Made by a program: the position numbers and the translations under genes
In this document: one piece after another, positions 1 to 35,080 of the stretch
Layout: each line of letters begins with the position of its first letter
Numbering within the stretch: the stretch's first letter is position 1
Notes under the pieces: generated by a model
Databases searched by the model: none
Told to the model about the DNA's origin: nothing
Seen by the model: only the letters and a program-made list of their open reading frames with translations
IMG/VR virus record: IMGVR_UViG_3300050330_000073
Location: 1 to 35,080 of that record
Origin: a virus
Taxonomy: Duplodnaviria; Caudoviricetes
Strand: one strand, 5' to 3'
DNA length: 35,080 nucleotides

Positions 1-1637
1 TGCACCGCAAGATGGCGGCCGCATTGGAGGAAGCGTTCGATCGAATTCGGAGCATTCAGGACTACGACAAGGAACACGAGAGAGGAGAGCGGCCGACTTG
101 GCCAATGATCGTTCTGCGGAGCCCGAAAGGATGGACTGGACCAAAGGTCGTTGACGGACTGAAGACAGAAGGTTCCTGGCGATCTCACCAGGTTCCGCTC
201 GCAGGTCTGGAGAAATCACCAGAGCACCTCAGGATGCTCGAAGCCTGGCTTCGGAGCTATCGGCCGAAAGAGCTATTCGATGAGCGTGGGTCTCCGGTTG
301 CGGCAGTGCGATCCGCGGCCCCTTCGGGATCGCGTCGAATGGGCTCGAACCCTCATGCCAACGGCGGCCTCCTCAGGCGTCCGCTCGATCTGCCACCCGC
401 GAGTGAATTCGAAGTAGCTTGTTCTTCACCGGGCTCGGCCGTTGCGGAACCGACGCGGGTGCTGGGTCAGCTTTTGGCCGAGGTCGCCCGCAACGAGAAA
501 AACAAGAACATTTTTCGACTCGTAGGCCCTGACGAGACCTCTTCCAATCGTCTAGACGCGGTCATCGAGGCTACCAATCGCAGCTGGGTGGCCGAGCTGC
601 TGCCTGACGATACGACTCTTTCGAGAGATGGGCGCGTGCTTGAAATCCTGTCCGAGCACACCTGCCAAGGATGGCTTGAAGGGTATCTGCTGACAGGTCG
701 CCACGGCTTGTTCTCCTGTTACGAGGCTTTCATTCACATCGTCGATTCGATGTTCAACCAGCACGCCAAGTGGCTCGACGCCAGTCGTAAGCTACCGTGG
801 CGAAAGCCAGTCGCGTCACTGAACTATCTGCTGACAAGTCACGTCTGGCGGCAGGATCACAACGGCTTCAGTCATCAGGACCCCGGCTTCATCGATGTTG
901 CGCTGAATAAGAAGGCTGACATCGTTCGAGTATATTTGCCGCCGGACGCCAACACGCTGCTCGCGACTGCTCACCACGTACTTGGAACATGGAATCGGAT
1001 CAACATCATCGTTGCAGGCAAGCAGCCGGGGCTGCAATGGCTCGACTACAATGAAGCTGAAGCGCACTGCAAACGCGGTATCGGAAAATGGGCTTGGGCA
1101 TCTAACGAACAGAATGGCGAACCAGACATTGTTTTGGCCAGCGCGGGGGATGTGCCAACACTAGAAGTAATTGCGGCCATCGCCATCCTTAAAGAGCATC
1201 TGCCCGAACTGAAAATCAGGATGTTGAACGTCGTCGATCTGATGACCTTGCAGCCGAATACGGTGCACCCGCATGGCCTCTCCGACCCCGACTTCGATCA
1301 GATGTTCACTGCAAGTCGCCCGGTCGTATTTGCCTATCACGGCTATCCTGCAACGATTCATCGGTTGACCTACAGGCGCGCCAACCATGCGAATTTCCAT
1401 GTCAGAGGGTTCATCGAGGAGGGCACAACCACCACCCCGTTCGATATGACAGTCTTGAACCGTCTGGATCGATACCATCTGGTTTGCGACGTCTTGAAAT
1501 ATTTGCAGCTATCGAACTCGGCGTCACATTCCCTTCGCGACCTTATGAAGAAAATGCTGGAGGAACATCATCGACACATCCGCATCACGGGGCAGGATCT
1601 CCCCGAGGTGCGCGATTGGCGATGGGCACCCTTGTAA
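1..1637 (+). CDS. xfp: Phosphoketolase (XFP family), 5'-truncated by the window edge
   Basis: XFP motifs WPMIVLRSPKGWTGP, GPDETSSNRL, LSEHTCQGWLEGYLLTGRHG, WRQDHNGFSHQDPGF, EEGTTTTPFDM. The frame is open back to the window start and the ThDP-binding N-terminus is missing. Confidence 0.95.
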   Translation, partial: HRKMAAALEEAFDRIRSIQDYDKEHERGERPTWPMIVLRSPKGWTGPKVVDGLKTEGSWRSHQVPLAGLEKSPEHLRMLEAWLRSYRPKELFDERGSPVAAVRSAAPSGSRRMGSNPHANGGLLRRPLDLPPASEFEVACSSPGSAVAEPTRVLGQLLAEVARNEKNKNIFRLVGPDETSSNRLDAVIEATNRSWVAELLPDDTTLSRDGRVLEILSEHTCQGWLEGYLLTGRHGLFSCYEAFIHIVDSMFNQHAKWLDASRKLPWRKPVASLNYLLTSHVWRQDHNGFSHQDPGFIDVALNKKADIVRVYLPPDANTLLATAHHVLGTWNRINIIVAGKQPGLQWLDYNEAEAHCKRGIGKWAWASNEQNGEPDIVLASAGDVPTLEVIAAIAILKEHLPELKIRMLNVVDLMTLQPNTVHPHGLSDPDFDQMFTASRPVVFAYHGYPATIHRLTYRRANHANFHVRGFIEEGTTTTPFDMTVLNRLDRYHLVCDVLKYLQLSNSASHSLRDLMKKMLEEHHRHIRITGQDLPEVRDWRWAPL

Positions 1638-5573: not shown

Positions 5574-8500
5574 TCAGAGGGTGGAAAGGGTTTCGGCGGC
5601 GGTGCCGCGGCCGTAGGCGCGCGAGGCCTGGGCGACGCGCCATGCGAGCGACCCCGGCGGCGCGCCGAAGTCGGCCGTCTGCTGAGCGGCGGTATAGAGC
5701 GCGCTTTGGCCGGTCACACGAACGGTGCGCACGACGTCTGCGCCATCGAGGATCAGGACGTCGTACTCTTCGGTCTCTTCGCCGAGCGGCACTTCATTGA
5801 GCCAGGAGTCGCCGCCCACACGCGTGCGCCTGATCCACGCGAGCTGGACATCGCCCGACGATGGATCGCGAACGGCCTTGAGCTGCACCGGCGCGAACGG
5901 CCGCAGACCGTTGCCGGTGTCAGTGAAAATGATCTCGCCCGACAGGTCGCCGCTCGGTCCCTGCGGAACCGGCGCGTAGCGCCAGGCGATCTCGATTCCG
6001 ATCCGCGAGACCGGAAAATTCGGGCGCGGCTGGCGTGCTGGGTCGAGCAGGATGAAGCGGCTTCCAGCAGGGTGGCTTGCGATCTCGTGCTCGGTGCCGC
6101 GCTGGCCGCGCAACAGCCGGCTCAGCCGATAGCGGCCCTCGGCAATAAGTTCGGCATTGGCGAACTGGATAACCTCGTCGCCGACGAGCGCAGCATTGCC
6201 GCCGGCGAGCACCCGCTCGTCGGGGAGGCTCTGCAGCGAGCCATAATCGAGCTGGACCTCGACCATATTGACGCGATCCCATCGCCAAGCCGGGCCGGCC
6301 GCAAGCTCGGTGACAGTCTCGCCCATGATGGACGGCAGGCCGGCGACGGCTGCGACCACGTAATCCAGCGCATCGGCGGTCGGCTGGAACAGCGTTGCGC
6401 CGCGGAAGCGGCCGGTGCCGGCCGGGCAAGCCGCCACATAGAAGCTTGGCGCCGACGCGTCGTGGCTGTCGATCATGATCGGCATGTCGAGGAGTTCGAT
6501 CCGGACCGGCGCGACCGGCTCGGGGACTGAGGGAGGCAGCACGCCGCTGTCGGTCGGCGCGGTATAGAACTCCGGGATGCCTCCGTCGGTCGCAACGCCC
6601 CGCAGCAGCACCAGCCCGGGCTTGCCGTAGGTCACGGCGGTGAGCCGGATACGGCGCCACACGCCGTCGATCGGAATTTCCACGATATCGGTCGGGTCGA
6701 AGCGCACTGCGCGGGTCGGCAGCCGCAGGTCGACGGCCTCGCGGCCCTGCCACATCTCGCGCAGGGCCCGCTGCCCGATCGCCTGCGCCTGTTCGACCGT
6801 GAGTACGATCGGGAAGCTCAGCGTGTTGACGCTTTCCGATTGACCCACCTGCTTGCGCACCGTCACTGTCGACGATTGATAGTCGCGGCCCTCGTCGATG
6901 TGGACCACGTCGACCGCGATCGGCAGCTCGGTGTCCTGGGTGCGCTCGACCTTGACGCGCGAACGGTCGCTGTCGTTCTCGCTGGCGCCGAGGTCGTTCG
7001 GATCGAGCGTGATCGGCGCACCGGCCCCGCGCTTGACGAACACCAGCACGCCGTCGCGCTCGACCGCATCGAAAAAGTACGCAGTCTGCAGGACGGCGAT
7101 CATGTCGCGCACCGCTTTGCGCTCGGTGACGACGTAGCCGACCACTTCGTCATCGAGCGCCGTCACGTCGAACTCGGCCTCGGCAAGTCCCGCCCGCAGG
7201 CAGAGGTCGCGGACGATCTCGGCGAGCTGCATGTTTCCGATTTTCCCCTCGATCCAGTGGCCGAGCCGAAAGTTTTCGCCGTCCGACCAGACGTTGGTGA
7301 GCGCCGGGAAGAACGGATAGGGCCGCGCGTCCCAGCACCAGACGAACCGGCGCTCGACCATGGGGCCGGCGTAGACCGACGAGGTCGGGTTGTTGGCCGG
7401 CTCGTTCCAGAACTCTTCGGTGGCCTCGATCGCGGCGCGCTGCACCACGCGGTCGACCGCGCGGTTCGAGTAGTAAGGCGCGAAGCTCTCGATCGATTTC
7501 GGGTCGATGAAGACGTTGGGCTGGTTGGTCGCGCAGTTCACTGTGGGGAAGCCGTACTCGGTGAACCAGATCGGCTTGCCGCGCGGCACCCAGGCCGTCG
7601 CAGGACCGGTCGGCACGCCCGAAACGCGCGGGACGTGCTCGTTCTCCCACCAGGTGCGAATGTCCTTGATGGCCCAGAAGGGATCATCGATCGGGGAGCG
7701 CTGTGGGTCGAGGCCGCGGCGATCGAGGTCGCGGTCGGCCTGCGTCGCGTAAAAGTAATCGATCAGCTCGCCCGACGCCCAGCCGACTCTGATCGCGTCC
7801 TTGTCGTAGACCGCGCGCGGCAAATCGGTGAGCGGGAAGTATGCATCGATCCCGACCACGTCGATGTTCGGGTCCGCCCAGACCGCATCGAGCGGGAAGT
7901 CGACGTTCGCGTCACCACGGTCGTGGTAGCGGTACTCGGACCAGTCCGCCGCATAGGTGACGATGCACTCCGATCCGAGCGTCGCCTTCGCTTCGGAGGC
8001 GATCTGCTGCCAGAACGGCACAGTGGGATAGTTGCCGCCGCCGTCGCGGATGCGGTTGAGCGCCACCATCTCGGAGCCGACCACGAAGCCGTCGACGCCG
8101 CCCGCGCCCTCGGCAAGCGACATGCAGTGCCGGATGAAGCGAAGGTAGCCGTCGGCGCGCTCGAAGAAACCGGACACGTCGGCTGCCGCGCCGCCGATCC
8201 GGCCGCGCCAAGGGAACGGCGACGGGTCGGGCGGTGGGATGTCCATCATCAGGAACGGGTACAGCATCACCTTGTAGCCAAGGCTGCGCAGATGCTGGAT
8301 AGCCCGGATCACCGATCCGTCGCTGATTGTTCCTCCATAGTAGAGTCCGATAGAGCCGTCCGGCTTTGTGTACGATGAGACGAGCGGCCACCCACCTGAT
8401 CCTCCGATGACAGGGCGACCAATGCCCATCACCGACCAGAGATACGGCGTCGTGTCCGGCAGCCGGTCCGGGTAGATCGCGTATTCGGCCTCGGGCCGGA

Positions 8501-9398
8501 TCGAGCAGGTCGCGACGTCCACCGACGTGCCGAACCAGGCGTAGACGACGCTGACCCACTCGACGTTCGGCACCTCGCGCTTGAGGTTCTCGATCGAGAC
8601 CGCGAAATCGGCAGCTTTTCGGCCGGCATTGCTGTTGATGTTGGAATTGCGCACGCGGCTGCGCACGACGTTGGGCTCGTAGGCCCATTCGCCGCTTGCC
8701 GGGATCAGGCAGACGCTGCGGACGAGATGGCGAGCATCGGCCACGTCCGCGCGCGAGCCGCGATAGACCTCGATCTCAAAGTTCGGGAAGCGGTTGCCGT
8801 AGGGCGTGAGGTAGAGGTTTTCGAGGACGACGTAAGATAAGCCACGGAACGCCGGCGTGCGGTCCGTGCCTTCAACGGCCTGGATCAGAGGGTCGGTTGA
8901 TTGCGTCTCGTCTCCATAGTAGGTGCGGATTTCGTCAACGTGCTCGGGATCGAGCGGGGTCTTGTCGAGCCAGATGCGATAGATCGAGGTGACCGGCGCC
9001 TCGCAGATCCCGAGCGCCACGTCGGCATAGTAGTGGTAGCTCGTGCGCGTGATGGTCTGGGTGCCGCCGCCACCACCGCCGCCTTTGCCGCCGCCTCCGA
9101 CCGTCTCGGTCTCGGTGCGAACCACTTCGCGAATGCCGCGGACCCAGATGATGTTGGCGGGCACGCGCATGCGGCCCCAGACGACCGGGATAGTCTGGCC
9201 ATAGGCCGATCCCGATAGGTTGAGCTCGGTGAGGCGCGCGCCTTCGACCGTCCGCCGGTCCTGCTGCGGTCCAAACAGTTCCCGGTCCAGGATGCCGCCG
9301 ACATAGGCGCCGAACAGCGCGCCGAGCGACTGACCGAGGCCGCCCGCGACACCGCCGCCGAGCACGCCGCCGGCGAGCGTCAGAACGAGTTGGGCCAC
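5574..9398 (-). CDS. Baseplate multidomain protein (RcGTA g15 'megatron'-like: N-terminal adaptor, GTA TIM-barrel, phage tail domain)
   Basis: 1274 aa with YRGS...SVCLIPASGEW, FPWRGRI, GSEMVAL, TYAADWSEY, GIDAYFPL, KPIWFTEYG, NQPNVF, WDARPYP, LLRGQRGTE, WIRRTR; last baseplate position. Confidence 0.9.
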   Translation of the reverse strand: MAQLVLTLAGGVLGGGVAGGLGQSLGALFGAYVGGILDRELFGPQQDRRTVEGARLTELNLSGSAYGQTIPVVWGRMRVPANIIWVRGIREVVRTETETVGGGGKGGGGGGGTQTITRTSYHYYADVALGICEAPVTSIYRIWLDKTPLDPEHVDEIRTYYGDETQSTDPLIQAVEGTDRTPAFRGLSYVVLENLYLTPYGNRFPNFEIEVYRGSRADVADARHLVRSVCLIPASGEWAYEPNVVRSRVRNSNINSNAGRKAADFAVSIENLKREVPNVEWVSVVYAWFGTSVDVATCSIRPEAEYAIYPDRLPDTTPYLWSVMGIGRPVIGGSGGWPLVSSYTKPDGSIGLYYGGTISDGSVIRAIQHLRSLGYKVMLYPFLMMDIPPPDPSPFPWRGRIGGAAADVSGFFERADGYLRFIRHCMSLAEGAGGVDGFVVGSEMVALNRIRDGGGNYPTVPFWQQIASEAKATLGSECIVTYAADWSEYRYHDRGDANVDFPLDAVWADPNIDVVGIDAYFPLTDLPRAVYDKDAIRVGWASGELIDYFYATQADRDLDRRGLDPQRSPIDDPFWAIKDIRTWWENEHVPRVSGVPTGPATAWVPRGKPIWFTEYGFPTVNCATNQPNVFIDPKSIESFAPYYSNRAVDRVVQRAAIEATEEFWNEPANNPTSSVYAGPMVERRFVWCWDARPYPFFPALTNVWSDGENFRLGHWIEGKIGNMQLAEIVRDLCLRAGLAEAEFDVTALDDEVVGYVVTERKAVRDMIAVLQTAYFFDAVERDGVLVFVKRGAGAPITLDPNDLGASENDSDRSRVKVERTQDTELPIAVDVVHIDEGRDYQSSTVTVRKQVGQSESVNTLSFPIVLTVEQAQAIGQRALREMWQGREAVDLRLPTRAVRFDPTDIVEIPIDGVWRRIRLTAVTYGKPGLVLLRGVATDGGIPEFYTAPTDSGVLPPSVPEPVAPVRIELLDMPIMIDSHDASAPSFYVAACPAGTGRFRGATLFQPTADALDYVVAAVAGLPSIMGETVTELAAGPAWRWDRVNMVEVQLDYGSLQSLPDERVLAGGNAALVGDEVIQFANAELIAEGRYRLSRLLRGQRGTEHEIASHPAGSRFILLDPARQPRPNFPVSRIGIEIAWRYAPVPQGPSGDLSGEIIFTDTGNGLRPFAPVQLKAVRDPSSGDVQLAWIRRTRVGGDSWLNEVPLGEETEEYDVLILDGADVVRTVRVTGQSALYTAAQQTADFGAPPGSLAWRVAQASRAYGRGTAAETLSTL

Positions 9399-9761
9399 CG
9401 ATCACGTCTCAACTTCGAAGGTGAGGTTCGGCAGGCGGTTTCCGAACGGCGTGATGTAGAGCCGCTCCATCATCACGTAAGCGAGACCCCGATAGGCGGG
9501 CGTGCGGTCGGCGCCTTCGACGGCCTGGATGAGCGGGTCCGGCGTCTGCGACTCGTCCCCGAGATAGACCCGCATGTCACCAACCTTGTCGTCCTCGAAG
9601 GCATTTCCGTCGGCGAACACGCGGTTCACGGCTGCAATCGGGCCGGCGCAGAGACCGACCGCAACGTCTGCGTAATAGTGGTAGCTGACATTGGTGACGG
9701 TCGTGCCGCCACCACCGCCGCCGCCTTTGCCGCCGCCGCCGACCGTCTGCGTCTCGGTGCG
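9061..9761. repeat. 59-bp near-identical repeat pair (9061-9119 and 9703-9761) shared by the two paralogous baseplate genes
   Basis: Manual alignment gives 54/59 identity; both copies encode RTETxTVGGGGKGGGGGGGT. Confidence 0.85.
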
Positions 9762-10037
9762 GACCTCCTCGTCGAAGCCGCGCATCCAGATGACGTTGGA
9801 GGCCATCCGCCCCTTGCCGTAGAGCAGCGGGATCACGGCGCCGTAGCTCGACGACTGCACGCGCAGGTCCTGCATGCGCGCACCGTAGACGGTCTGGCTG
9901 GCGGTGCCGCCGAACAGTTGCTGGTCGACGATGCCGCCGACATAGCCCCCGACAAGCCCTCCGATCGCACCGCCAAGACCGGGCAGCAGCAGATTGCCAA
10001 GGACGTAGCCGCCGACCGTGAGGACGATCTTCGCCAC
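9402..10037 (-). CDS. Stand-alone paralogue of the megatron N-terminal domain (211 aa)
   Basis: Collinear with about the first 212 aa of 5574-9398 (YHYYADVA, DPLIQAVEG, RTPAY/FRGL, TPF/YGNR); GTG start with GGAGAG RBS; stop 3 bp before the megatron start. Confidence 0.88.
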   Translation of the reverse strand: MAKIVLTVGGYVLGNLLLPGLGGAIGGLVGGYVGGIVDQQLFGGTASQTVYGARMQDLRVQSSSYGAVIPLLYGKGRMASNVIWMRGFDEEVRTETQTVGGGGKGGGGGGGTTVTNVSYHYYADVAVGLCAGPIAAVNRVFADGNAFEDDKVGDMRVYLGDESQTPDPLIQAVEGADRTPAYRGLAYVMMERLYITPFGNRLPNLTFEVET

Positions 10038-10063
10038 GAACCGGCTCTCCCAAATCAGAACCG

Positions 10064-10088
10064 CGAACCTTTAGTCCGCCGAGGCGTT
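10064..10088 (+). promoter_or_regulatory. Candidate sigma-EcfG (general stress response) promoter for the inserted cargo
   Basis: CGAAC-N16-CGTT, one mismatch from the alphaproteobacterial GGAAC-N16/17-CGTT consensus, about 70 bp upstream of the ATG at 10161. Confidence 0.35.
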
Positions 10089-10160
10089 GAGAATAGGCGT
10101 GATCTGTCAGTCCGCGCCGAACTGGCAGCAGACCGCGCCCCACTTATCGAGAACGGCAAG

Positions 10161-10902
10161 ATGGAAGCTCCGGTCGCCAAACAGGCCAAGCTCTACCGAA
10201 TGGTGACCGACCAGCACGTTTGCCCATTTGGCCTCAAATCGCGCGATTTGCTCGAACGAGAGGGCTTCGCGGTCGACGATCATCTGCTCAGGACACGCGC
10301 CGAGACCGATCCGTTCATGGCCGAGCATCATGTGAAGACGACGCCGCAGACGTTCATTGCAGGTCAACGCGTCGGTGGTTACGACGATCTCCGGCGCTAC
10401 TTCGGTAAGGCCGTCCGAGAATCCAACACGGTCAGCTATCAGCCGGTCGTCACGGTATTTGGGGTGGCCGCCTCGATGGCAGGGGCCGCGAGTTGGGGAA
10501 CCTTTGGCGAAATCTTCACGGTTCGAGCCGCCGAATGGTTCATTGCATTCAGTATGTGCATCCTTGCCATCCTGAAGCTGCGCGACCTCGAGAGCTTCTC
10601 CAATGTTTCTAGGTTACGACCTGCTTGCACAGCGGGTAGTGCGCTACGCCTATGTCTCTCCCTTTGCCGAAGCGCTAGCCGGCGTCCTGATGATCGCCGG
10701 CGCCCTGATGTGGCTTGCCATCCCCACGGCGCTCTTCATCGGCGGCATTGGCGCAATCTCGGTTTTCAAAGCGGTGTACATCGATAAGCGCGAGCTCAAG
10801 TGCGCCTGCGTCGGTGGCGACAGCAATGTCCCGCTCGGTTTTATTTCACTAACCGAGAACCTGATGATGGTCGCGATGGCGATTTGGATGCTTGTGAAAT
10901 GA
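10161..10902 (+). pseudogene. Glutaredoxin-MauE/DoxX-family redox membrane protein, frameshifted near 10602
   Basis: 5' part MEAP...LYRM...HVCPFGLK...TTPQTF...GGYDDL...ESFSN. The 3' part is in another frame: MFLGYDLLA...KRELKCACVGG. Adding 2 nt (AATG to AATATG) restores ESFSNMFLGYDLLA. Confidence 0.8.
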
Positions 10903-10921
10903 TCCAAGAGAGGAACAAGTA

Positions 10922-11431
10922 ATGTCCTACGCCCGCTTTGCGGCGATGATCGCCACTTCGACCGTGGTCATGTTCGGTCTGATGTATCTCAACACATTTG
11001 CGCTCGATCACGTTTTTTACAGCCAGACTCGAACCTGGATGGCGCTGCTGATGGGCACCGTCATGGCCATCATCATGCTTGGTTTCATGTGGTCCATGTA
11101 CAATGACAAACGCGTCAATGCATCCATCATTGCCGGAAGCGTGGTCGTCTTCGCGGCTTCACTGTGGCTCGTCCGCAGTCAGCAGACGGTGTCCGACGTG
11201 AGCTATATGAAAGCGATGATCCCGCACCACTCGATCGCGATCATGACGAGCGAGCGCGCCCATATCCGAGACAAACGCGTGCGCGAACTTGCCGACAAGA
11301 TTATCGAAGCGCAGGTTCGAGAAATCGGCGAGATGAAATCGCTGATTACCGACCTGGAACGAAATCCCCCGCCGGCCAATGCGCCTGACCTCTTGTCTTA
11401 TCGCCAGCGCGGCGCTCCTGCGCCGAAGTGA
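10922..11431 (+). CDS. DUF305 (ferritin-like, putative metal-binding) membrane protein
   Basis: Met-rich TM N-terminus, YMKAMIPHHSIAI and IIEAQVREIGEM motifs, GAGGA RBS. Confidence 0.85.
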   Translation: MSYARFAAMIATSTVVMFGLMYLNTFALDHVFYSQTRTWMALLMGTVMAIIMLGFMWSMYNDKRVNASIIAGSVVVFAASLWLVRSQQTVSDVSYMKAMIPHHSIAIMTSERAHIRDKRVRELADKIIEAQVREIGEMKSLITDLERNPPPANAPDLLSYRQRGAPAPK

Positions 11432-11435
11432 CCTT

Positions 11436-11870
11436 TCACGTGAGAAGGAGGCTCGGAATTCGGAACGCATGGCGGAGCTTCGCTCGCCACCAGGGTGAGA
11501 AACCGTGTTCGACCACTTTGCCGGCTTCACGGTAGCAGTGGATCAGGCCGCCACCCGGTGCGACATAGGCACAGTGATGCGCCGGTCCTTTGCCGACGCC
11601 GAACAGCAGGATGTCACCGGGCAGAGCGTTGGCCGGTTCGATCTCCTCGCAACGCTCCTTGAAGCCGAGATACATGCGAGGCTCGGCGCGATAGAGGTGC
11701 CAGGTCTCCGGGTAATCCAGCGGAATCGCGATCTCCCCGACAAACGGCTGGGCGACGCCGCGGATGAAGCCAATGCAGTCGCAGCCGACTCCTTTTAGCG
11801 ATGCCTGATGGTGCCACGGCGTGCCGAGCCAGCTCCGCGCCTCGGCGATCACTGCGTCCCGGGTGAACAT
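11436..11870 (-). CDS. NlpC/P60 phage cell-wall peptidase (TIGR02219, RcGTA g14-like)
   Basis: ARSWLGTPWHHQAS.KGVGCDCIG, PGDILLF, HCA and LIH motifs; the ATG at 11870 overlaps the upstream TGA (TGATG). Confidence 0.9.
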   Translation of the reverse strand: MFTRDAVIAEARSWLGTPWHHQASLKGVGCDCIGFIRGVAQPFVGEIAIPLDYPETWHLYRAEPRMYLGFKERCEEIEPANALPGDILLFGVGKGPAHHCAYVAPGGGLIHCYREAGKVVEHGFSPWWRAKLRHAFRIPSLLLT

Positions 11871-12709
11871 CAGCCCTTGATCGGATAGGAAAAGACTTTG
11901 TCGTTGCCGGGGATGTGTGGCTCGCCGCGGAAATTCAGGATGTTGCCGAACCGGGCGTGACAAGTCTCAGGAGTCTTGTCGCAGCCCGCGACAAGACGGA
12001 CCTGGTCGTCGACGGCGATCGGGCGCGGCATCGGCGTGAACAGCCGGATCGATTGTCCATTGTGCTGGAGCACTTCGGTCGCGGCGCCAGCGTTCGCGCC
12101 GGTCAGGAAGGTGCAGACGCCGAAGGTGTAGAAGCCCGTCGGCCGCGCAGTCGGGACCGTGAAAGTATCGCCGCTCGATACCGCCGAAATCGCGAGCTCG
12201 TCGGTCAACGGTCCGAGCACGACCTTGCACTCGGCGCTGCCGAGGTCGGTGCGGCAGAGCCGCGAATAGAGCTTGCCCGCGACCTGCTGAAGCCGGTTCG
12301 CGATGCCGCGGATTTCTGCGGAGAAGCGGTTGTCGGCGCGCTTGACTTCGCCGAGCCAGCCGCGACGAAGGAGAACGCGCCCTTGCGACAGGTCCGCCCA
12401 GTTGACGAGGAAGATGTCGATCCTGGCGCCATCGAAGAGGCCGGCGGTCAGGTCTTCGGCCTTGAGCGCGTCGTCATCGAGGAATCCATCGACATCGAGG
12501 TTGTCGACCGAGAGGTCCGAGCCGGACTTGATGGCGCTCGGCAGGAACCCGGTCGCGGCGACATAGGTCACGCTATCGATGACGAGGTTGCGGTCATGAT
12601 CGGTGAAGCCACGCACCCAGTCGTCCGTGCGTTCGAGCCGCCAGCAGGTCGCAAGCGTCGTCACCTCGCCTGCGAGATGAGTGGCGAGGGCTGCAGAGAC
12701 GCTTTTCAT
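11870..12709 (-). CDS. Baseplate hub protein DUF2163/TIGR02218 (RcGTA g13-like)
   Basis: TTLATCW, GFTDHD, CRTDLGSAEC and AGCDKTPETCHARFGNILNFRGEPHIPG motifs with conserved Cys. Confidence 0.92.
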   Translation of the reverse strand: MKSVSAALATHLAGEVTTLATCWRLERTDDWVRGFTDHDRNLVIDSVTYVAATGFLPSAIKSGSDLSVDNLDVDGFLDDDALKAEDLTAGLFDGARIDIFLVNWADLSQGRVLLRRGWLGEVKRADNRFSAEIRGIANRLQQVAGKLYSRLCRTDLGSAECKVVLGPLTDELAISAVSSGDTFTVPTARPTGFYTFGVCTFLTGANAGAATEVLQHNGQSIRLFTPMPRPIAVDDQVRLVAGCDKTPETCHARFGNILNFRGEPHIPGNDKVFSYPIKG

Positions 12710-12785
12710 GAGCTATATTCTGTCCCTACAAGTTTGCGCGTCCGCGGGCAAAGTCGCGCCCCAAGCCGAAAGCGAGAACGTTCCG

Positions 12786-13751
12786 ATGCACAGCAATTCC
12801 ATTGACCGCTGGCAACACGAGCACAGGTTCCTTGGCGAGAGGCATCATCACCATGAACGCCGCACCTGGTTCGTGGTCGCCCTGGCAGCCCTGATGATGG
12901 TTGTCGAAATCGTCGCCGGCACAATCTTTGGCTCGATGGCGCTGGTCGCGGACGGCTGGCACATGTCGACGCATGTGACCGCGCTTGCGATTACGGCGCT
13001 CGCCTATGGGTTTGCGCGCAGGCACGCACACGACGTGCGCTTCTCATTCGGGACCGGCAAGTTGGGCGAGCTGGCCGGGTTCTCAAGCGCGATTATCCTC
13101 GCACTGGTGGCGCTGTTCATCGGATACGAGTCCGTGGGCCGGCTGTTTGCACCCGTGCCAATCCGGTTCGAGGAAGCGACTCTCGTGGCGGTGATCGGTC
13201 TTGCGGTGAACCTCGTCAGCGCGTGGCTGCTTTTCGACAGGAGCCACCATCATGCCCATGACGATCACGATGACGAGCGTGATCGTTTGCACGACCACCA
13301 ACACTCGCACGACACCAACATTCGGTCCGCCTATCTGCATGTCCTTGCGGACGCGCTGACCTCGGTACTCGCGATCGTGGCGCTGCTCTCGGGCCGCTTC
13401 TTCGGCTGGGCTTGGCTCGACCCAGTAATGGGAGTTGTCGGTGCGGTCGTGATCGCGTCCTGGTCCGTGGGACTTATCCGATCCGCCGGAGCGGTACTGC
13501 TCGATACAGTGCCAAGTCAGAAACTAATGCGGATGGCGCGCGAACGGCTCGAAACCGGAGGCGACCGCGTTTCAGATCTCCACCTATGGCGTCTCGGGCC
13601 CGGACATCTTGGAGTGATTGCGTCCGTTATCACCGATCACCCTGAGCCTCCGGCAGCCTACAAAGAGCGGCTGGCAGAGATTGAAGGGCTGTCGCACATC
13701 ACAGTCGAGGTCCATTGTTGCCCAGATCACAAGCGCGCCGCTGCGGCGTAG
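12786..13751 (+). CDS. dmeF: Cation diffusion facilitator, DmeF-like Co(II)/Ni(II) efflux transporter
   Basis: H.H.FLG..H...ERRT N-terminus, GSMALVADGWHMSTH, FSFGTGK, His-rich loop, NIRSAYLHVLADALTS, DLHLW, SHITVEV. Start taken at ATG 12786. Confidence 0.85.
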   Translation: MHSNSIDRWQHEHRFLGERHHHHERRTWFVVALAALMMVVEIVAGTIFGSMALVADGWHMSTHVTALAITALAYGFARRHAHDVRFSFGTGKLGELAGFSSAIILALVALFIGYESVGRLFAPVPIRFEEATLVAVIGLAVNLVSAWLLFDRSHHHAHDDHDDERDRLHDHQHSHDTNIRSAYLHVLADALTSVLAIVALLSGRFFGWAWLDPVMGVVGAVVIASWSVGLIRSAGAVLLDTVPSQKLMRMARERLETGGDRVSDLHLWRLGPGHLGVIASVITDHPEPPAAYKERLAEIEGLSHITVEVHCCPDHKRAAAA

Positions 13752-13769
13752 TCATACTCGCACGCGCGC

Positions 13770-23459: not shown

Positions 23460-23795
23460 TTAGATCAATGCTGAGCGGACGCGCTCGGTGACAGCCGCGA
23501 GGTCGACTCGAATTTCCGTATGGCCGCAGCGCGCAACCACGGTTTGGCGACCTGCGGTGTCCAAGGGCGAGGTACCCAGAATTTTAGCAGCGCGACACGG
23601 TGGAAGACCGGCCGTCCCCAGTTCGACGATGGCTGCGAGATGAACGATATCCCTGAGCGTGTATTCGCGGCGGATTCCCGCTTGTGACTCACGAAGGGGG
23701 GCGAAGTGTTCACGCTCGATCCATTGATGCAGGCAAACAGGCGTGATGCCCACGGCCGCGCAGGTTTCGTGGATCGTAAAAGTACGTTCGGTCAC
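23460..23795 (-). CDS. MerR-like helix-turn-helix protein inserted in the head operon
   Basis: FTIHETCAAVGITPVCLHQWIER...GIRREYTLRDI...ELGTAGLP pattern; GTGA overlap with the portal stop. Confidence 0.65.
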   Translation of the reverse strand: MTERTFTIHETCAAVGITPVCLHQWIEREHFAPLRESQAGIRREYTLRDIVHLAAIVELGTAGLPPCRAAKILGTSPLDTAGRQTVVARCGHTEIRVDLAAVTERVRSALI

Positions 23796-31980: not shown

Positions 31981-32000
31981 TTAGATTTTGCGGCTGGCTG

Positions 32001-32057
32001 TAGCGAAATTTCGGGCCATTGCCCCCCGCATACCATTTTGCGCCAGGGAGGACCCGT
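32001..32057 (-). other. Lambda-like cos site (cosQ-cosN)
   Basis: Minus strand ACGGGTCCT-N20-CGGGG-N16-TTCGCTA versus lambda ACGGGTCCT-N21-CGGGG-N17-TTCGCTA as recalled. The cosQ heptamer GGGTCCT lies at 32049-32055. Confidence 0.75.
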
Positions 32058-32139
32058 GCGTCGGTCTTGCTGATCGTCGAGCGCGCCTCGCCCGAGCTTG
32101 ACGCGAAATTACGCTGAACCGGTCAACTGCGTCTCGCCG

Positions 32140-32167
32140 AAAAATGTCTCACCAAAAAATGTCTCAC
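32140..32167. repeat. Tandem 13-bp direct repeat AAAAATGTCTCAC (candidate late-promoter regulator sites)
   Basis: Exact copies at 32140-32152 and 32155-32167, degenerate GTCTCGC near 32131; upstream of cos and the late operon. Confidence 0.6.
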
Positions 32168-32264
32168 GTTCCAAAATGATCTTGACAGAAGAATCGGGTA
32201 TTGAATCTCCGCTGCGCTCCATTGTTCCCGAAATCAGGTGGCAACACGGCCAAGTCGAGATCAG

Positions 32265-32651
32265 CTAGAAGCAATCCTTAGCACTACGAGAATCGCCCCA
32301 CGCTTGTTCCGTAGCCCACCAAATGATCCAGCCGCCACCGACGATCAAAGCGGCAAGCGCGAGCCAACCGTAGAAGTTTGCTGACGCGAGGCCGGATGCA
32401 AGCACAAGCACAGGAAGGATCATGGCGAGATAGTACGGTCCCGTGTAGCGGCAGTGCGTGCGCCCGCAACGCTTTGCATTGAGGATGCACGCTGTGCCCA
32501 TCCAAATGAGCGCAGCGGACCAAACGGCCGCGCGTGCCGACACCGGGGCGAACAACGCAGCGACTACGGCACCTTTAGGGAGCCACCACGCGATGATGCT
32601 GGTATGGGCCTTACCGAGCCAGTCCCTCGCGGATTGGGCTGCAACGTTCAT
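32265..32651 (-). CDS. mer-associated Cys-containing membrane protein of unknown function
   Basis: Starts 4 bp after the merA stop; about 4 TM segments; ACILNAKRCGRTHCRYTGPYY motif. Confidence 0.75.
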   Translation of the reverse strand: MNVAAQSARDWLGKAHTSIIAWWLPKGAVVAALFAPVSARAAVWSAALIWMGTACILNAKRCGRTHCRYTGPYYLAMILPVLVLASGLASANFYGWLALAALIVGGGWIIWWATEQAWGDSRSAKDCF

Positions 32652-32655
32652 TCAA

Positions 32656-34083
32656 CTACCCGGCACAGCAGGACAGTTTCGCGACATCTTTCTCGAATCC
32701 CAATGCCGCAAGCTTCAAGCCTTCGACGGTTGTGAGATACGGAAAGATCGCGTCGGCAAGATCGTTGGTCGTCAGACCCTGCTGGATGGCGAGCGCCGCA
32801 GTCTGAATGCTGTCGCTTCCTTCGGGCGCGAGAATGTGCGCGCCCAGGAGTTTGCGGTTCTTTCTGTCGGCAACAAGCTTGATGAGGCCGCGCGTATCTC
32901 GCGCCGCCAATGCGCGCGGCACGGCACTGAGGGGTAGCACGGACACTCTCACGTCACGGCCGGCGGCTCGGGCCGCGCCTTCGGTCAACCCGACGCTTGC
33001 CACCTGCGGATCAGTGAATACGACCGACGGCATAGCCGTGTTGTCATAGCGCAGGCTGTTTCCGTTGAGAGCGTTCTTGGCCGCAAGCTTCGCACCGTAA
33101 GCAGCCATGTAAACGAATTGATCGTGGCCGGTGACATCGCCCGCCGCATACACGCCAGGGCGCGTGGTCTGCATTCGATCGTCCACCTGAATGCTGCCGT
33201 TTGCCGCTTGCGCGATCTTGGCTTCTCTCAAGCCAAGCCCCTCGACATTGGGGGCGCGACCCGTCGCAACTAAAATGCGCTCGGCTGTCAGCGTCGTATC
33301 CCGAGCTTCGCGCGTGACGACAAGAGCCGCTCCAGCTTCAGTCTGCCGCGCCTGCTTGTAAGTGACCCCGCACTCAAGAGCGATGCCTTCGTCTCGGAAA
33401 TAGCCTGACAGAGCATCCGAGATTTCCGGCTCCGCCGCCGGCAACAGGTGGCTGCGGCAAACGACTGTGACTTTGACGCCCATGCGCGCAAACATCTGCG
33501 CTAGTTCAGCGCCGATGTAACCCCCGCCGATCACAAGCAATGACTTCGGGAGGCATTCAAGGGATAGCGCGGTGGTGCTTGTCAGATACTCGACAGCATC
33601 AAGACCGGGGATCGAGGGCACTGCAGGCCGTGCGCCCGTGACGATGATAAGGCGCGGCGCCTTGATCAGATCGCCATTGATGGCCACGCCACCTTCGGCA
33701 AGGCGGGCCTGCCCTTCGACGTAAGAGATGTTGTTATAAGCCGGTAAAAGATCGGCGTATTTCGATTGGCGCAGGCTCGAAACGAGCTCGTCTTTCTGCT
33801 GGACGGTCGCTGTCCAATCGCCCACCTGCCCTTTGGCCCTGATGCCTGCGAAGCGCGCGGCGGCGCTGGCCTGATGCTGTGTCTCAGCGGCCCGGATTAG
33901 TGTTTTTGACGGCACGCAACCGATGTTGACGCATGTGCCGCCAAGAGTGCCATGACCAATCAGAGCCACCTGCGCACCTTGTTCTGCCGCAGTGATCGCC
34001 GCCGAAAAGCCTGCCGACCCCGCACCGATGACGGCGAGATCAAATTGCTTGCCGCGATTTCCAGACGCGCAACAGTCACTCAT
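32656..34083 (-). CDS. merA: Mercuric reductase lacking the NmerA domain
   Basis: GAGSAG, GGTCVNIGCVPSK, IGGGYIG, YAAGD, FPYLT and C-terminal LSCCAG. Start at ATG 34083 (MSDCC), overlapping the upstream gene. Confidence 0.96.
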   Translation of the reverse strand: MSDCCASGNRGKQFDLAVIGAGSAGFSAAITAAEQGAQVALIGHGTLGGTCVNIGCVPSKTLIRAAETQHQASAAARFAGIRAKGQVGDWTATVQQKDELVSSLRQSKYADLLPAYNNISYVEGQARLAEGGVAINGDLIKAPRLIIVTGARPAVPSIPGLDAVEYLTSTTALSLECLPKSLLVIGGGYIGAELAQMFARMGVKVTVVCRSHLLPAAEPEISDALSGYFRDEGIALECGVTYKQARQTEAGAALVVTREARDTTLTAERILVATGRAPNVEGLGLREAKIAQAANGSIQVDDRMQTTRPGVYAAGDVTGHDQFVYMAAYGAKLAAKNALNGNSLRYDNTAMPSVVFTDPQVASVGLTEGAARAAGRDVRVSVLPLSAVPRALAARDTRGLIKLVADRKNRKLLGAHILAPEGSDSIQTAALAIQQGLTTNDLADAIFPYLTTVEGLKLAALGFEKDVAKLSCCAG

Positions 34084-34327
34084 GATTTGACGCCTTCTTT
34101 GCTGGCCCGCAGCACGCTTGAGCATTGATGCCGCGACGCCGGAGCCACAGGACGCAGCCGACCGCACCGGCAATCAGCACGGCTGCGATCAGCACGTATC
34201 CCGAATAGGAGAGCCAAGCTGCGAGCGCCGTCACGCTGATGCCCGCAATAATCGCTGGCGTGGCGCAGCAAACCACCGCAAGGGCGCCAACGAGCACTGC
34301 TCCAATTGTGGTACCGGCTGCTTTCAC
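34076..34327 (-). CDS. merF: MerF-like two-TM mercury transporter
   Basis: 83 aa, AVVCCATP in TM1, YVL before TM2, C-terminal CC pair; between merP and merA. Confidence 0.7.
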   Translation of the reverse strand: MKAAGTTIGAVLVGALAVVCCATPAIIAGISVTALAAWLSYSGYVLIAAVLIAGAVGCVLWLRRRGINAQACCGPAKKASNHE

Positions 34328-34334
34328 CGGAGGC

Positions 34335-34619
34335 TCAGCCTTTCGGAGAGGACGGATAGCCGGCGTTCGTCGTCGCTGTCGTCAGCGCCTTCACGTTGGT
34401 CTTTGCGTCGTCGAAGGTCACGATGGCAGTCTTGTTTTTGAATGACACCGAAACCGCTTTGACACCCGGCACGGATTGCAGGCTCGATTTAACGGTGTGC
34501 GGGCACGCGGCGCAGTACATGTTCTGCACCGCGAGCGTCACCGTTTTTTCCGCTGCACGAGCAGACGAAGGACCGATGATGCCGAGCGAGAGCGTAACAG
34601 GGATGACGTACTTCATCAT
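34335..34619 (-). CDS. merP: Periplasmic mercury-binding protein
   Basis: Signal peptide, MYCAACP HMA motif, C-terminal ATTNAGYPS. Confidence 0.93.
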   Translation of the reverse strand: MMKYVIPVTLSLGIIGPSSARAAEKTVTLAVQNMYCAACPHTVKSSLQSVPGVKAVSVSFKNKTAIVTFDDAKTNVKALTTATTNAGYPSSPKG

Positions 34620-34636
34620 TTGATTTGCTCCATTGG

Positions 34637-35050
34637 TTAGGACAGCACGTAGGGGGCGACATAGTCGAAGGCCCAGGCGGCAAGAACAATGACGGTCGCC
34701 GCAATGAGCGCGATCTTAACGAATCTGTTAGGCAATGGCCGTGCGCAAGCCTCACCCTCTGCACAGGCGACCTTTGACGAGCGATAGACCAACCAATAGC
34801 CGGTGCCGATGAAAGCGAGCGTGGCCGCAATGAAATACGGCTGATAGGGCGCAAGCTGCGTGAAGTTTCCAATCCATGCGCCACTGACACCAAGGCTAAA
34901 GAGAACGACCGGCAAAATGCAGCACGACGATGCGGCGAGCGCACCGATGATCCCGCCCGCCGCCGCCAGCTTTTGACCCTTGCCGGGCGAGGCGTTGGCA
35001 GGGCGATCGCTCAATGCAATAGAACCCATGGCGCTGCGCGTTTCGCTCAT
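34637..35050 (-). CDS. merT: Mercuric ion transport protein
   Basis: AASSCCILP...LGVSGAWIGN..L.PYQPYF, ACAEGEACARP, three TM segments, GAGGA RBS. Confidence 0.94.
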   Translation of the reverse strand: MSETRSAMGSIALSDRPANASPGKGQKLAAAGGIIGALAASSCCILPVVLFSLGVSGAWIGNFTQLAPYQPYFIAATLAFIGTGYWLVYRSSKVACAEGEACARPLPNRFVKIALIAATVIVLAAWAFDYVAPYVLS

Positions 35051-35080
35051 TTCGTTGTCCTCTCTGGATCGCGGGCGGTA

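Follow-up and report, generated by a model that had tools for sequence, protein, structure and literature searches.

The 35,080-base virus record analyzed here (IMGVR_UViG_3300050330_000073; this whole stretch is called the window below) carries its phage genes on the minus strand and, between genes of the baseplate operon, two inserts with cargo on the plus strand. A preliminary description of the sequence had presented this operon as a Dit-hub-peptidase-megatron block. The block is indeed split by the inserts, but its real order is Dit, hub, peptidase, a duplicate of the megatron N-terminus (megatron-N) and the full megatron. The features of the region are given below in the order of the phage operon.

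13770..14357, minus strand: distal tail protein (Dit; TIGR02217), conserved flank
12710..13769, plus strand: insert 2 (1060 bp) in the Dit–hub slot, from the Dit stop (13770) to the hub start (12709)
12786..13751, plus strand: dmeF, intact, a CDF-family Co(II)/Ni(II) efflux transporter gene (NF033827, 464.5 bits; cut-off 250)
11870..12709, minus strand: baseplate hub (TIGR02218), conserved flank
11436..11852, minus strand: NlpC/P60 peptidase (TIGR02219), conserved flank, final codons unlike those of empty relatives
10038..11435, plus strand: insert 1 (1398 bp) in the peptidase–megatron-N slot, from the peptidase stop (11436) to the megatron-N start (10037)
10922..11431, plus strand: DUF305 protein (PF03713); a CopM-like match is weak and below the cut-off
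10161..10902, plus strand: glutaredoxin-MauE fusion gene (grx-mauE), frameshifted near 10602
9402..10037, minus strand: duplicate of the megatron N-terminus, 211 amino acids (aa), 55% identical to the megatron, conserved flank
5574..9398, minus strand: full megatron, 1274 aa (NF048004)

Genes, composition and ends of the inserts

In relatives whose slots are empty, the peptidase–megatron-N gap measures -1 to 6 bp and the Dit–hub gap mostly 2–3 bp. Both inserts of the window were previously described as antisense, lower in GC content and ending close to the phage stop codons, and the coordinates and base composition agree with this: the DUF305 gene ends at 11431 and dmeF at 13751, 4 and 18 bp from the convergent phage stops. 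The GC content is 0.575 in insert 1 and 0.614 in insert 2, as against 0.664 ± 0.015 in the phage core, where no overlapping window of the same size showed values as low (0/519 and 0/526, respectively). At third codon positions, it amounts to 0.71–0.73 in the cargo versus 0.75–0.88 in the flanking phage genes. The absence of any mark of transposition was likewise confirmed. All the phage open reading frames (ORFs) flanking both inserts are open, as are the structural ORFs of the window in general, and a scan of 46 window ORFs gave no transposase hit. Direct or inverted repeats between the insert ends are at most 5–6 nt long, which is not above random window pairs, and no terminal repeats or target duplications above chance were detected at the inserts. 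The features expected of an insertion sequence or a composite transposon (transposase, terminal inverted repeats and target duplication) are thus missing at both inserts.

The score of the dmeF product exceeds the curated cut-off of the DmeF family. No dmeR gene precedes dmeF, and only 76 bp separate the hub start from the dmeF start, so that the window does not contain a dmeRF operon. The ten closest DmeF proteins are 76–88% identical to the window copy; no direct donor of the cargo was found, the top plasmid matches reaching only 67–74%. Insert 1 does contain the Grx-MauE and DUF305 genes reported earlier, but grx-mauE is frameshifted: near 10602 the window is two bases shorter than the related loci L019, L138 and L090, where the gene is intact (247–250 aa), and is therefore read as two ORFs, the Grx frame stopping at 10787 and the MauE part forming a separate ORF (10603–10902). 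This frameshifted form is identical in all four sequencing runs checked. A CsoR/RcnR-type repressor heads the grx-mauE-DUF305 cassette in L138 and L090, while the window and L019 lack it. Both window cassettes are eroded, since they have no metal-sensing repressor and grx-mauE is broken.

Occupancy and cargo of the two slots

Relatives were collected with hub, methylase and holin-like queries, and junctions were measured if each of the two flanking genes reached 55% identity, identical 100-nt flanks being counted once and the window included. The Dit–hub junction is filled in 14 of the 59 distinct cases (45/59 empty) and the peptidase–megatron-N junction in 16 of 59 (43/59 empty), as against 1/52 for the junction between the tape measure gene and Dit, 1/62 for hub–peptidase, 2/51 for megatron-N–megatron and 0/24 for another neighboring junction. 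The nominal Fisher p values for the slots versus the neighboring junctions range from 1e-3 to 4e-5, with rows that are related by descent. Further slots lie at the terminase–portal (9/28), tube–chaperone (9/34) and DUF6441–terminator (4/32) junctions and between DUF6362 and the methylase gene. Later scans with Dit and megatron-N and a search of 401 genomes gave mostly the same phages and were left out of these counts; the 30 loci fetched in the latter search, made with the hub, did not include any further filled slot.

The Dit–hub and peptidase–megatron-N junctions are cargo hotspots, and repeated gene gain at exactly these junctions without a transposase is supported. The breakpoints of the inserts are located in the final codons of the upstream phage gene on one side and at the downstream start codon on the other. 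Across the relatives, the slots are either empty or hold unrelated cargo, with no fixed identical cargo, which agrees with the repeated capture at gene junctions proposed in the preliminary description; a wholly obscure route, as proposed there, is not supported, identity steps at other cassettes pointing to homologous recombination (see below). Two further ideas on the junctions were dropped. A block to insertion by overlapping stop and start codons is not supported: a one-base overlap occurs at 21 of the 43 peptidase–megatron-N junctions that are empty, yet close kin of such phages are filled (L028 and L092 beside L027 and L122). A promoter pattern, considered as a word common to the slot ends beside the downstream phage gene, was present in only 4 of 40 rows, duplicates included.

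The 30 filled junctions were reduced by hand to 23 distinct cassettes, 11 and 12 at the two slots, and different islands thus occupy one conserved neighborhood across genomes, as in hotspots of the iLund4u type. Metal-related cassettes account for only two or three of the 23, namely dmeF (2 phages), csoR-grx-mauE-DUF305 (4 phages) and possibly ArsR-MFS. Defense and toxin-antitoxin cassettes include type I restriction-modification (RM), HipBA, PD-T4-7-like and PD-T7-5-like systems; five more cassettes gave nuclease-like matches, some of them weak, and HNH and NOV_C occur among the cargo. The remaining cargo consists of YnfA, YbaL, LysR-SDR-hydrolase, Lrp-hydrolase and MarR blocks, and six of the 23 cassettes have little or no annotation. 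None of the 82 hand-picked insert ORFs of the relatives encodes a transposase; an IS110 gene was present in one case, in the methylase slot of L187. In 19 of the 23 cassettes, the gene beside the upstream phage stop runs antisense, often at most 20 bp from the stop. This bias and the small share of metal cargo indicate that the architecture of the inserts is general in the family and the metal theme minor at the slots. A metal theme, which the preliminary description saw in four cargo sites of the window, is not supported for the two slots themselves; at one of those four sites, the gene (xfp) is unrelated to metals and located past the last phage gene.

Junctions adjacent to the slots hold Tiamat TmtA in one case and a RES-Xre pair in another. 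Defense genes observed in the baseplate junctions include Tiamat TmtA (L097:6728-11275), a PD-T4-7-like gene (L026:3906-4841), a PD-T7-5-like gene with a DEDDh exonuclease (L046:5935-8595) and a full type I RM system (L091:11265-18913). Unannotated single-gene cassettes of the two slots (L028:11280-11987, L083:11402-11995, L092:11465-12268, L095:7845-9269 and L104:11361-11972) are candidates for new defense genes. The two junctions are easy anchors for accessory-gene mining, the six little-annotated cassettes lying in slots that elsewhere hold defense systems. Toxin-antitoxin pairs (BrnT, ParE-Phd, PIN-Phd and RES-Xre) also occur in antisense orientation in other late-operon junctions (L004:5296-5996, L030:2983-3592, L037:2588-3554 and L089:11917-13111).

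The phage family, its metal genes and the exchange of cassettes

The minus strand of the window encodes two ParB-methylases, a lambda-type terminase, portal, protease, decoration, capsid, tail tube and tape measure proteins, the RcGTA-type Dit-hub-NlpC/P60-megatron block, a DUF2793 protein and a lysis module. The named relatives are records from Xanthobacteraceae, Rhodoplanes, Bosea, Ancylobacter and Methylocystis. Primase, helicase, a Sak4-like annealing protein and a RecE/Cas4-like exonuclease (the last two in L178) are encoded by relatives, a large serine recombinase occurs in three of five records, and the records with primase, helicase and serine recombinase measure 40–55 kb. This gene content points to a temperate phage family and not to a gene transfer agent, that is, a head-tail cluster without replication and integration genes of its own, from which the lambda-type terminase, portal and capsid also set it apart. 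The top match of the window hub among 50,697 deposited phage records is 45%. The stand-alone 211-aa megatron-N duplicate was found directly before the full megatron in all the 75 testable loci of close relatives, and may be an extra baseplate subunit. Between portal and protease, the window also carries a MerR-like helix-turn-helix gene (23460-23795, minus strand) at a junction filled in 2 of 16 distinct cases; its homologs precede the methylase gene in other relatives.

Two scans of viral contigs with short dmeF patterns, which do not amount to a census, gave nine loci with at least 56% identity and five at 44–45%. The nine consist of L019, seven dmeR-dmeF cassettes in the DUF6441–terminator junction of more distant family members (L311-L313 and L315-L318, with dmeF near 4001 in L311 and a second CDF gene in two of them) and one locus before the lysin gene of a prophage with a P2-type tail gene; all are antisense, and eight of the nine lie in the late operon of the window family, at two junctions. 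The repressor is present in the DUF6441–terminator cassettes and in that of L314. Four of the five weaker loci stand beside P2-type portal or terminase genes, and four of the five begin at a contig end. Since the DmeF proteins of the Dit–hub and DUF6441–terminator groups are only 60–65% identical, and proteins nearer the window copy, including named Microvirga proteins, stand between them in the tree, dmeF was apparently captured independently at the two junctions. Other metal genes occur elsewhere in the family: an arsenic operon (arsR-arsC-arsC-MIP; L025:252-2401) lies antisense between the tail terminator and tube genes of a phage (L090) that also has the grx cassette with nested PAP2, CrcB and EamA genes, and a lone DUF305 gene stands at another junction. 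The mer genes were found in 3 of the 54 loci spanning their slot, and elsewhere a Fic, HipA, AbiEii, TauE or IS110 gene was seen in this slot.

The recurring capture of metal and metalloid genes (dmeF, dmeRF, csoR-grx-mauE-DUF305, mer and ars) is the residual surprise of this analysis, with counts that have no background rate. It is conceivable, as a tentative proposal, that this uncultured family of temperate Hyphomicrobiales phages has gone unrecognized as a metal-resistance carrier in the communities of sludge, sediments and fresh water, with dmeF captured twice, mer, ars and csoR-grx-mauE-DUF305 in addition, several cassettes stacked per genome, and shuffling between co-occurring prophages, in one clade via short end arms. 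Judging from its family, DmeF would give the lysogen Co/Ni tolerance; should lysogens indeed become tolerant of Co/Ni or Hg, environmental Alphaproteobacteria would offer a clear example of metal resistance carried by a phage. A literature search that covered few subscription papers and no supplements yielded no publication on either these slots or dmeF in prophages; PMC13626063 and PMC9658991 contributed only a citation of metalloid resistance on a Citrobacter phage.

The distribution of the cassettes is patchy. Carriers of the same cassette do not form one clade in the Dit, hub, peptidase and megatron-N trees, and the hypothesis of a single carrier clade was rejected in all the five flank-gene tests (approximately unbiased test, p-AU 2e-4 to 6e-41). 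A relative (the contig of L010, L198 and L254) that is 88–94% identical over the window phage genes has both slots empty and nevertheless shares mer and xfp with the window, and run X8 contains filled and empty-type joints alike. The family thus supplies natural pairs of filled and empty alleles for the study of moron exchange. When the slot is filled, the downstream gene is somewhat more divergent over its first 30 nt (0.76 for the hub versus 0.85 when empty; the figure for the peptidase–megatron-N junction is distorted by mis-registered rows), which could reflect short tracts or adaptation of the translation start.

The mer cassette and the xfp end provide the most direct view of exchange:

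32150..35080, minus strand: mer cassette (merT, merP, merA and two small ORFs) in the DUF6362–methylase slot; merR lies just past the window edge in relatives
1..1637, plus strand: xfp (partial), past the last phage gene

The mer cassette is 99–100% identical in L173, L174, L176, L194 and L198. This near-identity runs about 100–150 bp into flanking DNA that is also present in empty relatives, and then drops from 97% to 78% in L194. Compared with the L019 contig, the window shows 94–99% identity over 1701–2200, at the xfp end, and 72–88% beyond, with the step near 2200–2500. These steps within conserved flanks point to homologous recombination and share their form with the traces described in the accessible part of De Paepe et al. 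(PMC3945230); on these alignments, mer is the clearest apparent case of a recently swapped cassette. In runs X2, X7 and X8, the contig carrying mer (window 32000-35080) has 2–3 times the depth of the contigs with the baseplate inserts, contig depth being a rough measure, which is consistent with several co-occurring elements carrying mer. Contigs of run X17 gave no cover of the mer region, which does not speak for its absence there. The xfp gene of the window may be host DNA. At L254:10791-16511, the last phage gene is followed by an xfp-ackA-small membrane protein-P-type ATPase block, whereas RM systems, sugar genes or a different P-type ATPase occupy this position in other relatives.

Taken together, it is likely that the inserts are accessory cassettes in two recurrent baseplate-operon slots, moved between related prophages by homologous recombination in conserved flanks and not by a transposase or a dedicated capture enzyme. 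A host gene block would have entered a junction once, probably by illegitimate recombination, given where the breakpoints lie (see above); this is the default inference, and none of the results explain the entry itself. The antisense orientation would then likely have been favored, presumably because the cassette can be expressed in the lysogen while the tail and lysis genes downstream are not driven and the late transcript acquires no terminator. Filled and empty alleles would be swapped among co-occurring prophages, plausibly by the phage Sak4-like annealing protein and exonuclease: the patchy distribution and the crossover-like steps at mer and xfp suggest this, and the two baseplate slots might have followed the same course. 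Cassettes finally erode, as the lost repressors and the frameshifted grx-mauE gene of the window attest.

Several points weigh against this interpretation. No donor tract was found at the baseplate slots of the window at 100-bp resolution, the slot flanks being 76–99% like those of empty close relatives and no closer to the carriers L019 or L138. The DNA identity between cassettes (71% for dmeF, 77–85% for the grx block and 64–68% for ynfA) is roughly that between the carrier phages, which old vertical inheritance would also predict, so that exchange at these two slots is an extrapolation and old inheritance with repeated loss might account for them. The Sak4 gene is known from relatives only, the early region lying outside the window. 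The slot counts lack phylogenetic independence, and the longest ORF stood for the gene in five inserts that were unannotated or of unknown content. No terminator-like site was found at the 3' end of either cassette, where the convergent stops are 4 and 18 bp apart, nor any sigma-70 consensus upstream of either one in a scan that covers alphaproteobacterial promoters poorly (one -10-like word was seen, at 12714). With no room for a terminator and no convincing promoter, the strict definition of a moron applies only in part.

Alternatively, each cassette might have been inserted once, long ago, and then passed on vertically with many losses, the pair in the window stemming from an ancestor shared with L019. 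The presence of both cassettes in the window and L019, whose DmeF proteins form one well-supported clade, speaks for this account, as do the similar divergences of cassettes and phage genes and some empty junctions of 11–63 bp that resemble deletion scars. It is nonetheless rather unlikely: many close relatives show the same clean 2–3 bp junction as distant clades, and a repeated return to that junction would itself require recombination with an empty allele; moreover, different cassettes occupy one slot inside a single clade, and recent exchange is directly visible at mer. The view of the family as a specialized heavy-metal-resistance vehicle with metal cargo as its main business, put forward in the preliminary description, draws on the eight of nine viral dmeF-like loci (at least 56% identity) in its late operon and the antisense position of all nine among phage late genes, on the two dmeF groups that stand apart in the tree, and on the mer, arsR-arsC-arsC-MIP, second CDF and lone DUF305 genes at other junctions. 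Metal cassettes do recur in the family, but they are a minority at the two slots, most of the junctions there are empty, mer shares its slot with unrelated genes, one of the two window cassettes is decaying, and the dmeF scans relied on short patterns; such a specialization therefore appears improbable.

A dedicated system of capture or exchange using short conserved linker arms at the slot ends, of an integron-like or boundary-sequence-like kind, would fit five Dit–hub inserts of one distant clade (L035, L038, L095, L100 and L101), which have unrelated cargo and the same 60–85 bp or so beside the hub start. Their hub-side ends are 68–81% identical, and about 40 bp after the Dit stop are common to three of them. 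These arms are absent from the window inserts and from every peptidase–megatron-N insert, no recombinase gene lies at the slots, and the degenerate ends, which could be remnants or swap arms, fit the remnants of one ancestral insert. No boundary motif is common to the window inserts and other cargo, and neither the common recombination site nor the linked integrase of an integron-like array was found. Such a system is thus very unlikely, and the undescribed system suggested earlier is mostly unsupported, the pattern matching morons and phage variability hotspots. As the window is a single metagenome-type virus record, host genes might have been placed in a phage contig by misassembly, which the preliminary description had named as a possible refutation. 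This possibility can practically be discounted, since contigs from four runs and four studies (run X2 being possibly the source sample) span the junctions and the frameshift site with zero differences or gaps, and diverged phages hold homologous cassettes at the same junctions.

Relation to known systems

The inserts are best filed as hotspot cassettes behaving like morons, a general phenomenon that is well known. The comparisons below are based on those parts of the cited papers that were accessible. Like the morons of lambdoid phages, such as HK97 gene 15 in the tail operon (Cumby et al., 2012; PMC3594210), they consist of additional genes separating phage genes that adjoin each other in relatives (empty junctions in 45/59 and 43/59 cases), differ in base composition, carry no mobility genes, occupy a tail-operon site and would probably benefit the lysogen. 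Morons are described as having a promoter and a terminator of their own, whereas the window cassettes lie tail-to-tail with a phage gene and lack the latter; the host group and the cargo (Co/Ni efflux) also differ. The hotspots of antiviral systems in P2 and P4 (Rousset et al., 2022; PMC9122126) resemble the present slots in being fixed loci between conserved genes with varied cargo, including defense systems, for which homologous recombination was proposed; those hotspots are dominated by defense genes (beside cos in P2/P4), whereas the window slots are in the baseplate operon, usually empty and mixed in cargo. The plasticity regions of Pseudomonas Mu-like phages (PMC4378225) likewise hold variable islands with no common recombinase target at their flanks, and iLund4u (bioRxiv 10.1101/2024.10.15.618418) listed 13.7K hotspots in phages and plasmids, with islands between conserved core genes.

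The dmeRF operon of Sinorhizobium meliloti (PMC6044271) belongs to the same DmeF family of Co/Ni efflux, and relatives of the window phage carry the corresponding combination of an RcnR/CsoR repressor and dmeF; in contrast to this bacterial locus with its regulator, the window dmeF is phage-borne and has no dmeR. Finally, the Dit-hub-peptidase-megatron block is like the RcGTA-like tail modules of Rhizobiales prophages such as vB_MseS-P1 and M. nodulans LC1-LC5 (PMC11409702), from which the window family differs in its lambda-type head module and its megatron N-terminal duplicate.

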